A DNA stretch of 64,000 bases from a phage, in the NCBI GenBank assembly GCA_037574385.1, contig GCA_037574385.1_4529.1; one strand, given 5' to 3'. Each line of letters begins with the position of its first letter. Positions within the stretch are counted from its first letter, which is position 1. A program made the position numbers and the translations under genes. Shown piece after piece: positions 5,962 through 44,798 of this stretch. The notes under the pieces were generated by a model. It ran no database searches. It worked only from the letters and a program-made list of their open reading frames with translations, and was not told where the DNA came from.

Positions 5962-8287
<2,326 letters not shown>

Positions 8288-40056: not shown

Positions 40057-40389
40057 TCACTTATAAAGACACGGAATAGCTTTATAGTGGCATGTTACGA
40101 ATTTCTGTTTAATTTCTTTAGGTTGTTTAAGACCTAAAGCCACAAATGGATGTGGAACATTTCGAATTTGTCCAACTGGTAGTGGAGTCAAATCACCGAC
40201 TTCAACAAAACCTTCAGGAACATCAGGACCTACAGAATGAACTACACATAGTTCAGGAACTTCACCTTGAACACGTTTACCAATCACAAGTCCTGATTCG
40301 GTAACTTCTTCATCACCTGCTTGAGCGGGTTCAGAAACCAGAATGACATATTCACCAACAGCACGAATTGGGAGTTGTACTTCAGACAT
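40057..40389 (-). CDS. 31: co-chaperonin for GroEL gp31
   Basis: 110 aa; [29 protein letters not shown]... and C-terminal [15 protein letters not shown] as T4 gp31. Confidence 0.97.
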
Positions 40390-40446: not shown

Positions 40447-40755
40447 TTACATAAGAAGCAAACGTTCCACCGGAGTACCATCAACCGAAATTACTTTATC
40501 AAGGCGGAAAGAACGCCACTGACCTAACTTGGTATCGAATGCTCGAACTGATTCACGAGGTTCATAACGAACTTCTGTTGCCGGATTGTTATTTTCGTAT
40601 TTGACTTCAAGTTCGTCGCGCGAAGCAAACATCGTACGAACATCACCGTTAGCCTTTTCAAATACAACACAATGAACGCCTACAGACAGAATAGTTTTAA
40701 TACGTTCACGAAGAACCATAGTTTCTTGTTCAGTTAAAATCATATTATTCACCAC
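40447..40755 (-). CDS. hypothetical protein (102 aa)
   Basis: ORF between gene 31 and cd. Confidence 0.6.
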   Translation of the reverse strand: MVNNMILTEQETMVLRERIKTILSVGVHCVVFEKANGDVRTMFASRDELEVKYENNNPATEVRYEPRESVRAFDTKLGQWRSFRLDKVISVDGTPVERLLLM

Positions 40756-41326
40756 AAAAGTTTCGGATTTGTTCCCAATTCAGAGAACGAAGATTATTAC
40801 GAGAGTACTGAATTACTTCAATACCAGCTTGTTTTAGAATATCTGCCCAATTTTCAGGAGATCTGTCATATAATTCTGCGTATACAACCTTTTTAATACC
40901 TGACTGCGTAATAGCTTTAGTGCAATCAGGACACGGAGAAAGCGTCGTATATAACGTAGCACCTTCAATAGAATTACCTTTACGAGCGGCAAACAAAATT
41001 GCATTCAATTCTGCGTGGATTTCATTATTAGCAGACCATGCACTATGAGCAGCTCGATGTTCTTTAGCTAAAACAAAATTATCTACCCGTCCAAATGCTG
41101 TAGTGCCTTCTTTATGACCAGCAATGATGACAGGACTCGGCTTGTTCTTCAACCAACCTTGTTCAGTAGCATGGTCACAACAGTTTATACCACCTGCCGG
41201 GCTACCGTTATACCCAGTAGAAATGATACGTCCATCTTTTTCAATGACGGCACCTACTTTCCATGAACAACATTTTGATTCTTGAGAAATCAGATATGCA
41301 ATCTGAAGGTATGTGCTAGCTTTCAT
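40745..41326 (-). CDS. cd: dCMP deaminase
   Basis: 193 aa; zinc-binding HAELNA and PCPDC motifs; length as T4 Cd. Confidence 0.95.
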   Translation of the reverse strand: MKASTYLQIAYLISQESKCCSWKVGAVIEKDGRIISTGYNGSPAGGINCCDHATEQGWLKNKPSPVIIAGHKEGTTAFGRVDNFVLAKEHRAAHSAWSANNEIHAELNAILFAARKGNSIEGATLYTTLSPCPDCTKAITQSGIKKVVYAELYDRSPENWADILKQAGIEVIQYSRNNLRSLNWEQIRNFCGE

Positions 41327-42318
41327 TATTGAACCTTATTAATATAAGTTAACAGCTCTTTAGTTTGTTCCCAACTGATGCACGCATCGGTAACGGAAAC
41401 GCCATAGGACATATTATCAGAAATTTTTTGATTTCCTTCATGTAGGAACGATTCTATCATAATTCCTTTGACCAAATCATTAGCTGCTAAATTTTTACCA
41501 ATACCAATTTGATTGCTATAATGCCCATCAGCGTTTGCATGGCTACAGTCAACCATCACATAATGATTCAGACCTACTGCCCTTGCTTTGTTAGAAGCTT
41601 CTTGAATATCAGAAGAATGATAGTTCGGGCCGTTGGTCCCGCCACGCAATACGATATGCGTATTCTGATTACCTTCAGCTTCAACAATGCCTACAGTACC
41701 ATCGACGTCCATACCCATATACCGATGAGGCCAGGCGGCACTATACATCGCGTCTGTAGCTACTTTAATAGAACCATTGGTTGCGTTCTTAAAGCCTACG
41801 CACATCGGTAGACCTGAAGCAATTTCACGATGTGTCTGACTTTCAGTCGTACGGGCGCCAATAGCAACCCATGAGAAAATACCAGAAAGATACTTAATCG
41901 TGAATGGGTCTAATACTTCAGTTGCTAATGGAAGTCCCATACGTAGAAGTTTACGACACAATGTTCGTGCAACTATAAGACCGTGGTTCATATCAAAACT
42001 TCCGTCAAGATATGGATCATTTACAAGACCTTTCCAACCTACGGTAGTTCGAGGCTTTTCAAAATAAACGCGCATCACTAACAGAACATTAGGAAGACGA
42101 GTTTGAAGTTCAGCCAGACGTTTGCCGTATTCAACAGCAGCAATAGGGTCATGAATTGAACAAGGACCTACAACAATAAGTTTGCGTGGGTCTTCACCGT
42201 TCATAATCGAATTAACTTGTTCGCGATGAGAAGCCACTTGTGATGCGTAAGCTTCCGACAAAGGAATAATCTCAGCCAGTTCTTTTGGAGAAATAAGTTT
42301 TCCGACGACAGGTAACAT
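41326..42318 (-). CDS. 3-deoxy-D-arabino-heptulosonate 7-phosphate (DAHP) synthase, class I AroG/F/H-like
   Basis: 330 aa; LIVVGPCSIHD, KPRTTVGWKGL, IGARTTESQ, CVGFKN, IVLRGG motifs align with E. coli AroG over full length; stop overlaps cd start. Confidence 0.9.
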   Translation of the reverse strand: MLPVVGKLISPKELAEIIPLSEAYASQVASHREQVNSIMNGEDPRKLIVVGPCSIHDPIAAVEYGKRLAELQTRLPNVLLVMRVYFEKPRTTVGWKGLVNDPYLDGSFDMNHGLIVARTLCRKLLRMGLPLATEVLDPFTIKYLSGIFSWVAIGARTTESQTHREIASGLPMCVGFKNATNGSIKVATDAMYSAAWPHRYMGMDVDGTVGIVEAEGNQNTHIVLRGGTNGPNYHSSDIQEASNKARAVGLNHYVMVDCSHANADGHYSNQIGIGKNLAANDLVKGIMIESFLHEGNQKISDNMSYGVSVTDACISWEQTKELLTYINKVQ

Positions 42319-42438
42319 AACAATCCTTAGGAGATATAAACAGATTCTGATTCAACAATACCTTTAACCGGATTAGACAGGTTAAGTTGGTAGTGCTCAG
42401 ATTTATGACCATTCTCGATAGTAATGAGATAGCTCTCA

Positions 42439-42675
42439 TTATAGTGTTCCATATACTCGAGTTGCTTCAACAAGACCATCACTGCCTAATTTAAGATTAG
42501 TAATTTGGTCACCATCTTTAGGATTAACGATTATGAGAAAAGAACGTGGAGATTCTTGAATAACTCGTAATGTTGCATCCTGGAAACGTTCAGACACTTT
42601 ATTGATGAGTGCTTGAGCAAATTCTTTTACTTTAATCTGAAATTCGTGTACTGTAATTGGATTTTCACTTAGCAT
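42439..42675 (-). CDS. hypothetical protein (78 aa)
   Basis: ORF in co-directional array. Confidence 0.55.
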   Translation of the reverse strand: MLSENPITVHEFQIKVKEFAQALINKVSERFQDATLRVIQESPRSFLIIVNPKDGDQITNLKLGSDGLVEATRVYGTL

Positions 42676-42732
42676 TTCAATTTCCTCATTGTTGGTAGAG
42701 TCATCATATCACAACTCTACGGTGTTGTAAAC

Positions 42733-44498: not shown

Positions 44499-44499
<1 letters not shown>

Positions 44500-44798
44500 T
44501 ATTTTATTCCTAAGAAAGCTTCAAGAATACGAATGTTATGTTCGCGCCGGTCTTTATTAATTTCAGCAACGTTTTTATTAATTGACGTACTTCTAACGTT
44601 TGAAGAAATAAATTTAATCATATGACTTTTGAGTTGTTGCAAATCCAACCCTTTTTCTTTAGCAGCTTTACGAAGAGCTTTACCTGCTTCGTCTAGGGCC
44701 TTTGCTGCATCTTTATCATAATTGACAAGTGACATTCCACGGCAGATATCAATATACTCATCTGACCGTTTGATATAATTCTCTAGTAATGTTTTCAT
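44499..44798 (-). CDS. hypothetical protein (99 aa)
   Basis: ORF with early-type promoter upstream. Confidence 0.6.

Follow-up and report, generated by a model that had tools for sequence, protein, structure and literature searches.

Genes for 3-deoxy-7-phosphoheptulonate (DAHP) synthase have already been described in T4-like phages. The family phrog_5045 includes the Straboviridae aldolases of JS09, HX01, Shf125875, phiC120 (ORF64), PEi20, CHI14 and KLB31, and is placed in the category “moron, auxiliary metabolic gene and host takeover”. The paper on phiC120 notes the DAHP synthase domain (PMC8022965), and a 2025 paper proposes a Kanagawavirus homologue as an auxiliary metabolic gene for aromatic amino acids (PMC11845039). 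Here, we analyze the DAHP synthase gene of a 64,000-nucleotide phage contig (GCA_037574385.1_4529.1, from assembly GCA_037574385.1), which as a whole is referred to as the window. The gene occupies the same slot as those of the phages listed above, and its product shows no sequence-level difference from that family (phrog_5045, E=3.2e-182, residues 1-330 on positions 8-337 of 341). Proteins 100% identical to it have been deposited for CCU7, O157 typing phage 6, ChristianSchoenbein, Shf125875, phiC120 and LF82 phages, and the names found among deposited annotations include “phospho-2-dehydro-3-deoxyheptonate aldolase”, “aroF”, “AroG” and “DHAP synthase class 1”. The original prediction, which recognized a DAHP synthase among the nucleotide metabolism genes of the window, is therefore real and right in outline but already known, and the annotation adds nothing, since the gene is named in GenBank, in PHROGs and in at least two papers. 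The one aspect that may be worth an experiment is a remodelling of the allosteric site across the whole phage clade, and its value is biochemical.

Among the cellular enzymes, the tyrosine-sensitive AroF of Escherichia coli (PDB 6AGM/6AGL) is 51% identical to the phage protein over the full length. The two have the same metal ligands, the KPRTT motif, the PEP (phosphoenolpyruvate)-binding Arg and Lys residues, and a Gly at the position that sets Tyr/Phe specificity. In contrast with AroF, the phage protein is 26 residues shorter: it lacks 9 residues at the N-terminus, has two short internal deletions close to the C-terminal third, and its C-terminus is shorter as well. It carries I, K, G, P and Y in place of AroF residues P151, Q152, D156, S181 and F210. 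The fold predicted for the phage protein matches the phenylalanine-sensitive enzymes E. coli AroG and Neisseria meningitidis DAH7PS (1KFL, 4HSN/4HSO), whose identity to the phage protein is only 45-47%. The best explanation for these features, which we hold to be probable from the sequence, is that the phage would make an early-expressed, catalytically competent and feedback-insensitive DAHP synthase that keeps the flux to chorismate open.

Active site and inhibitor site

The gene and the element upstream of it are as follows:
41326..42318, minus strand: DAHP synthase (3-deoxy-7-phosphoheptulonate synthase, type I-alpha), 330 amino acids (aa), identified from its open reading frame (ORF), profiles and predicted fold
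42324..42328, minus strand: Shine-Dalgarno-like AAGGA, 5 nt ahead of the ATG that starts the DAHP synthase, read from the sequence and with a putative function

The ORF of 330 codons was found exactly where it had been placed, starting with ATG on the minus strand, a detail that had been left unstated. A longer in-frame start is ruled out because the ORF list of the window uses the first start after a stop. The five motifs that had been quoted (LIVVGPCSIHD, KPRTTVGWKGL, IGARTTESQ, CVGFKN and IVLRGG) all occur in the translation. An end-to-end match to class I DAHP synthases had also been claimed, and a search against PF00793 had been suggested as a check. This search gave a full-length match (E=5.2e-75, 252 bits against a cut-off of 25.5, residues 36-323 on profile positions 8-269 of 270), and the NCBIfam model TIGR00034 (aroFGH) was likewise matched well above its cut-off (427.7 against 173.2 bits, residues 6-327 on positions 9-335 of 342), as was PRK12755 (455.1 against 343 bits). 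The equivalog models for AroG (NF006723, 363 against 568 bits) and AroH (NF009396, 386 against 463 bits) were not reached. All NCBIfam matches were to DAHP synthase models, with none to the KdsA (KDO8P synthase) model; KdsA carries a different motif in place of KPRTT.

The best match by sequence in the PDB is E. coli Tyr-sensitive AroF (6AGM, 354 bits), where residue 8 of the query pairs with AroF residue 17. An AlphaFold2 model, built with an alignment of 39 sequences as input, reached a pLDDT (predicted local distance difference test) of 88.8 and a pTM (predicted template modelling score) of 0.90. The predicted fold superimposes on E. coli AroG (1KFL, 8E0U) and N. meningitidis DAH7PS (4HSO) with template modelling scores of 0.95-0.96 and a root mean square deviation of 1.5 Å. 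It is a (beta/alpha)8 barrel that keeps the beta6a/6b hairpin insertion, with strands at residues 198-203 and 209-214.

Residues were compared in an alignment of the window protein with 24 close homologues of the phage type, 95 cellular ones and the AroF, AroG and AroH enzymes of E. coli. The window protein has C53, H260, E289 and D311 as counterparts of the AroG metal ligands C61, H268, E302 and D326, and this Cys-His-Glu-Asp tetrad is invariant in all phage-clade (25/25) and all cellular (98/98) sequences. The residues that bind PEP and erythrose-4-phosphate (E4P), which are R92, K97, P98, R99, T100, R165, K186 and R234 in AroG numbering, are invariant throughout the alignment. The loss of metal- or PEP-binding residues, named beforehand as evidence that would speak against a DAHP synthase, was thus not seen, every catalytic residue being invariant. 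On the strength of profiles, predicted fold and residues, the window protein is assigned to the type I-alpha (AroF/G/H-type) DAHP synthases, and since the catalytic residues are intact across the alignment, it is very probably active as such.

The region responsible for feedback inhibition presents a different picture. It had been pointed out that the N-terminus is about 8 residues shorter than that of AroG and guessed that the enzyme may be deregulated. The difference is 8 residues relative to AroG and 9 relative to AroF, and the stretch equal to AroG residues 2-9 is missing in all 25 phage-clade proteins. This N-terminal arm reportedly has a role in inhibition. Moreover, five positions of the inhibitor pocket differ between the cellular and the phage sequences. 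In AroG numbering, position 150 is P in 91 of 98 cellular sequences and I in 24 of the 25 phage ones; position 151 is Q in 98/98 and K in 24/25; position 155 is D in 95/98 and G in 24/25; position 180 is S in 97/98 and P in 25/25; and position 209 is F in 97/98 and Y in 25/25. The set of features that goes with feedback inhibition (the N-terminal arm plus P150, Q151, D155, S180 and F209) is therefore not found in the phage protein, and the missing arm and the clade-wide replacements in the pocket lend the guess of deregulation considerable in silico support.

In AroG/AroF, the inhibitor (Phe/Tyr) is bound at its main chain by Q151/Q152 and S180/S181, and a salt bridge of D155/D156 stabilizes the inhibitor site (PMC9529685). 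In AroG, the P150L variant is completely resistant to Phe, and S180F and F209A/S are resistant (PMC9529685). The phage clade is thus naturally altered at the same pocket positions as engineered resistant DAHP synthases (AroG P150L, S180F and D146N, as well as N-terminally engineered AroG), and it has no N-terminal segment. Unlike those of engineered AroG, however, its changes are natural, multiple, clade-wide and conserved; D146 is kept, and the replacements I, P and Y differ from the residues introduced in the laboratory (P150L, S180F, F209A/S). Given that the arm and both backbone-binding side chains are lost, insensitivity to Phe, Tyr and Trp is the most likely state predicted for this enzyme.

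Origin, distribution and selection

The enzyme had been described as host-type. Its placement in the AroF/G/H class stands, but the term is misleading, since the protein is only 51, 47 and 43% identical to the AroF, AroG and AroH enzymes of E. coli, respectively, misses the AroG and AroH cut-offs, and has a phage-like GC content at third codon positions (GC3) and a phage-only clade. A search of 5.8 billion proteins returned best cellular matches of 50-55% identity, and these are scattered over Planctomycetota, Pontiella, Pseudomonadales and enterobacterial AroF. All proteins above approximately 55% identity are phage-type, with 319-343 aa, and the cellular ones have 341-388 aa. In a neighbour-joining tree made from the 120 best matches (123 sequences in total), the 25 phage-type proteins form one clade in 100 of 100 bootstrap replicates, and their sister group consists of Pseudomonadota-like sequences from metagenomes and not of E. 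coli AroF. The GC content and GC3 of the gene (41.4% and 29.9%) are close to those of its phage neighbours cd (39% and 25%) and pseT (41% and 35%), and differ from those of E. coli aroF (52% and 50%). Recent capture from a host is ruled out by the 51% identity to AroF, the phage-like GC3, the monophyletic phage clade and the scattered nearest cellular matches. In terms of sequence, the gene is an old phage resident. The phage collection searched also holds DAHP synthase matches that are probably bacterial, for example, on a Salmonella houtenae contig of 691 kb and, as aroF_1, on a 24-kb contig named “Acinetobacter phage MD-2021a”. Homologues of 35% identity occur on human-gut “Bacteriophage sp.” contigs.

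Over the 6 kb around the gene, identity is 99.1% with Shigella phage ESh27 and 95-98% with many Mosigvirus genomes (phiC120, Bas47/AlbertHofmann and Shf125875, among others), and the window is a Mosigvirus, that is, an RB69-like coliphage. The synthase was found with tblastn in 213 phage records; identity is 95% or more in 140 of these (Mosigvirus) and 60-80% in 47. The surroundings of the gene were inspected in six genera, namely, Mosigvirus, Kanagawavirus (PEi20), Marfavirus (Kpn BM7), Winklervirus (CHI14), Bragavirus (vB_SdyM_006) and Gualtarvirus (PSTRCR_121). In each of them, it lies upstream of cd and directly downstream of the small ORFs on the pseT side (cd.2/cd.3 block). The divergence of the synthase from the window protein (76, 66, 67, 59 and 62%) parallels that of the flanking cd, gp31 and pseT, and the ratio of nonsynonymous to synonymous substitution rates (dN/dS) is 0.14-0.21 in 20 pairwise comparisons covering the six genera and Mosigvirus itself. 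This pattern is that of an old, vertically inherited and selected resident of this part of the Straboviridae.

As had been stated, the gene is absent from T4, which has cd.1-cd.5 and no DAHP synthase between cd and pseT, with cd.1 in the slot. It is also absent from RB69, where cd.2 is joined directly to cd. The same empty site was found in approximately 11 Mosigvirus-level records, among them RB69, ECO111 5-P, mar005P1, JK36, JK42 and moha, and in more distant WG01/QL01-type phages. The elements that define the slot in the window are the following:
40745..41326, minus strand: cd, dCMP deaminase (PF00383, E=5e-26; phrog_174, E=2e-74)
42439..42675, minus strand: cd.2 homologue (DUF7320; PF24005), the upstream neighbour, 65% identical to T4 Cd.2 (E=7e-35)
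42327..42452, minus strand: small putative 41-aa ORF between cd.2 and the DAHP synthase, read from the sequence, MEHYNESYLITIENGHKSEHYQLNLSNPVKGIVESESVYIS
42430..42442, minus strand: left copy of a 13-bp imperfect direct repeat, at the cd.2 stop, ATAATGAGAGCTA
41317..41329, minus strand: right copy of this repeat, at the DAHP synthase stop and cd start, ATAATGAAAGCTA

The repeat, ATAATGA[G/A]AGCTA, flanks a 1113-bp module made up of the 41-aa ORF and the DAHP synthase. In RB69, one copy lies exactly at the empty site (about 8237..8255 of the RB69 locus), and the module is missing. No comparable repeats were found at the junctions of PEi20, Kpn BM7 and CHI14, and for this reason insertion into Mosigvirus and deletion in RB69 are not distinguishable from the repeats. 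The left copy with the bases that follow it, ATGAGAGCTATCTCATTAC, looks like a decayed duplicate of the 5' end of cd, ATGAAAGCTAGCACATACC. In the RB69 record, cd itself (7743..8252 of the RB69 locus) is annotated with 169 aa and ends in ...ADILKPSWY*, whereas the window and T4 reach 193 aa, although the DNA remains approximately 95% identical. The RB69 record appears to contain a frameshift or a sequencing difference here.

Proposed role and alternative explanations

In the proposed role, the gene would be transcribed early, together with cd.2 and cd, from a conserved T4-type promoter, and the enzyme would catalyze the metal-dependent condensation of PEP and E4P to DAHP, the entry step of the shikimate pathway to aromatic amino acids. 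With its N-terminal arm lost and the residues that hold the amino acid backbone of the inhibitor rewritten, it would most likely be insensitive to Phe, Tyr and Trp. Carbon would then be forced during infection into the remaining shikimate enzymes of the host (AroB to AroC), which are not feedback-inhibited. This flux would persist while the DAHP synthases of the host are inhibited or repressed by ambient aromatics and are not re-made after host shut-off, and the chorismate formed could supply Phe, Tyr and Trp for the burst of phage protein synthesis, chorismate-derived cofactors, or both. Of this picture, the family, the intact active site, the purifying selection, the conserved gene order and the altered pocket are shown, and the activity of the enzyme, its early expression, the loss of feedback inhibition and the gain for the phage are inferred. 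Tyr makes up 3.95% of the residues in the proteins of the window, and Phe, Tyr and Trp together 9.4%, against roughly 2.8% and 8.2% in E. coli, which gives weak support from the demand side. An auxiliary metabolic gene, as it was first called, is borne out as the best reading.

Several points weigh against this role. The searched literature yielded no enzyme assay or genetics of any phage homologue, with annotation-level mentions only, and the gene is dispensable, given that RB69, about ten other Mosigvirus records and T4 exist without it. The beta6a/6b hairpin that forms the pocket is still there in the AlphaFold2 model, and D146, G178 and L179 are retained. The replacement residues are conserved across genera, so the site could still bind something, and the Gly at AroG position 211 is a Tyr-type signature as in AroF, which makes residual sensitivity to Tyr possible. 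Of 8 variants designed for Corynebacterium glutamicum AroF, only 2 showed clear resistance, and equivalent positions can differ between enzymes (PMC9529685). An ordinary Tyr-type DAHP synthase that is still feedback-regulated could benefit the phage simply as an extra dose of enzyme after host shut-off, its pocket changes being neutral or tuning affinity. The retained hairpin, the conserved D146, G178 and L179 and the Gly shared with AroF fit such an enzyme, as do AroF as the closest PDB sequence, a Tyr-sensitive S213G Neisseria variant as the top structural match, and the frequent failure of engineered pocket substitutions to give resistance (PMC9529685). We nevertheless regard it as unlikely, because five positions that are 93-100% invariant in the 98 cellular homologues are changed in 24-25 of the 25 phage-clade sequences, because these include the backbone-holding Q151 and S180 and come with the loss of the arm in all members, and because P150L by itself renders AroG fully resistant (PMC9529685).

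Deregulation of the enzyme may also serve cofactor supply and not amino acids, with chorismate being converted through p-aminobenzoate to folate for td, frd and the dCMP-modifying thymidylate synthase homologue, and for the folate of the T-even baseplate. T-even phages have folate in the baseplate, the gene lies in a same-strand early block with cd, nrdA/B, td and frd, and deregulation is most sensible when aromatics are plentiful and the supply of chorismate is thus throttled. However, the annotated neighbourhood contains no pab or fol biosynthesis gene, the cd-pseT interval is hyperplastic, with many unrelated small ORFs, so that position is weak evidence, and RB69 and T4 do without a DAHP synthase gene. 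We consider this explanation rather improbable, although the benefit to the phage may lie either in amino acids or in cofactors such as folate. A selfish or neutral passenger (moron) that drifts in and out by short-repeat recombination and brings the phage no benefit would account for the presence/absence polymorphism within Mosigvirus and for the 13-bp direct repeats at the module ends. It is very unlikely in view of a dN/dS of approximately 0.15-0.2, a fully conserved active site, a slot that is kept in six genera by a gene diverging in step with its core neighbours, and approximately 140 filled against 11 empty sites at the Mosigvirus level; a pseudogene or passenger was rejected on the dN/dS and the intact active site. 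The least credible explanation is a PEP-aldolase retooled for another sugar phosphate, e.g., arabinose-5-phosphate, and tied to the arabinosylated cytosine in Mosigvirus DNA. KDO8P synthases also fall within PF00793, Mosigviruses make arabinose-5-phosphate with their own isomerase (PMC13326640), and synthase and isomerase occur together in Mosigvirus, CIP9, pzk-kv8 and CHI14-like phages. Yet the DAHP synthase-specific KPRTT and all E4P and PEP residues are invariant, NCBIfam recognizes the protein as DAHP synthase only, RB69 has the arabinosylated base without a DAHP synthase, and the gene is unmentioned in both arabinosylation papers (PMC6024577, PMC13326640). The distributions also differ when the records of the RB69 gp55 arabinose-5-phosphate isomerase (276) are compared with those of the DAHP synthase (213). 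Klebsiella has 25 synthase records but is outside the ten most frequent organism names of the isomerase, Acinetobacter has 57 isomerase and 4 synthase records, and Yersinia has 6 isomerase records and is outside the ten most frequent synthase names. A link to the modification was discarded, since the overlap follows phylogeny only, RB69 is modified without the synthase, and the substrate motif is invariant.

A more speculative extension of the feedback-insensitive reading, to which we give a small chance, is that the Straboviridae DAHP synthases may be an ancient natural type I-alpha clade whose allosteric site was rebuilt and not merely lost. The replacements I150, K151, G155, P180 and Y209, which lie within the near-invariant DPFTIKYL..GIFSW....ASGLPM, are conserved across the six genera. 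Such a rebuilt site may leave the enzyme insensitive to all three aromatics, or place it under the control of another phage-relevant ligand or a partner protein. If true, this would be the first I-alpha DAHP synthase that is unregulated or re-regulated by nature, and it would offer a direct handle on why T4-like phages want chorismate, be it for amino acids, for folate or even for tryptophan in the role of a tail-fibre cofactor.

The sequence evidence predicts a naturally deregulated type I-alpha enzyme that purifying selection maintains in six T4-like genera. Its confirmation would mean that T4-like phages of enterobacteria override aromatic biosynthesis at its committed step, comparable to the rewiring of the pentose phosphate pathway by cyanophages, and would provide a ready-made deregulated enzyme for metabolic engineering. 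Natural relatives without the gene (RB69, JK36, moha) and the BASEL collection phage Bas47 make it easy to test.

Junction with cd, predicted promoter and neighbouring genes

The gene next to the synthase had been identified as dCMP deaminase, which is borne out by PF00383 and phrog_174, and translational coupling between the two had been proposed from the overlap of their stop and start codons. The overlap is real and amounts to one base, the A at 41326, which is common to the TAA of the synthase and the ATG of cd (GTT CAA TAATG AAA). It is, however, a local detail that is not kept in other genera, where a cd.1 homologue or a homing endonuclease sometimes lies between the two genes or the genes are merely adjacent. 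Overlaps of the TAATG/ATGA kind are commonplace in this region. Coupling to cd was therefore rejected as a significant feature.

On the minus strand, the order of genes is pseT, cd.4, an RB69ORF227c-like ORF, cd.3, the predicted early promoter, cd.2, the 41-aa ORF, the DAHP synthase, cd, 31.1, 31 and rIII, with nrdA/B, td and frd further upstream on the same strand. The 41-aa ORF shares 14 nt with the end of cd.2 and stops 8 nt ahead of the synthase ATG. The annotation of phage Bas47 lists it as a hypothetical protein, and, as part of the 1113-bp module, it is missing from RB69 along with the synthase.

The putative promoter is located between cd.3 and cd.2:
42703..42731, minus strand: predicted T4-early-type promoter (GTTTACA, a 17-nt spacer and a TG-extended TATGAT), from a consensus scan and the sequence

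The scan alone is not above chance, with 9 sites against 11.8 expected, and the weight of this candidate comes from its positional homology to an annotated T4 early promoter. The segment 42731..42703 aligns with the T4 intergenic region that holds Pe133295, and this cd.3-cd.2 promoter is almost base-for-base the same in T4, RB69, Bas47 and the window. A scan for terminator-like sites on the minus strand between the candidate promoter and cd found none. It is thus the likely start of a transcript over cd.2, the 41-aa ORF, the DAHP synthase and cd, and early co-transcription of the synthase with cd.2 and cd would follow by homology with T4.

Other genes of the neighbourhood gave minor observations. 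The gp31 co-chaperonin (40057..40389, minus strand) has a weak Cpn10 match (E=4e-7), and the gp31.1 homologue (40447..40755, minus strand) has a WYL_2 Sm-like SH3 barrel domain (PF10902, E=4e-9). A 99-aa ORF (44499..44798, minus strand) is the counterpart of a “putative homing endonuclease” of Bas47 and, at that length, is probably a remnant.

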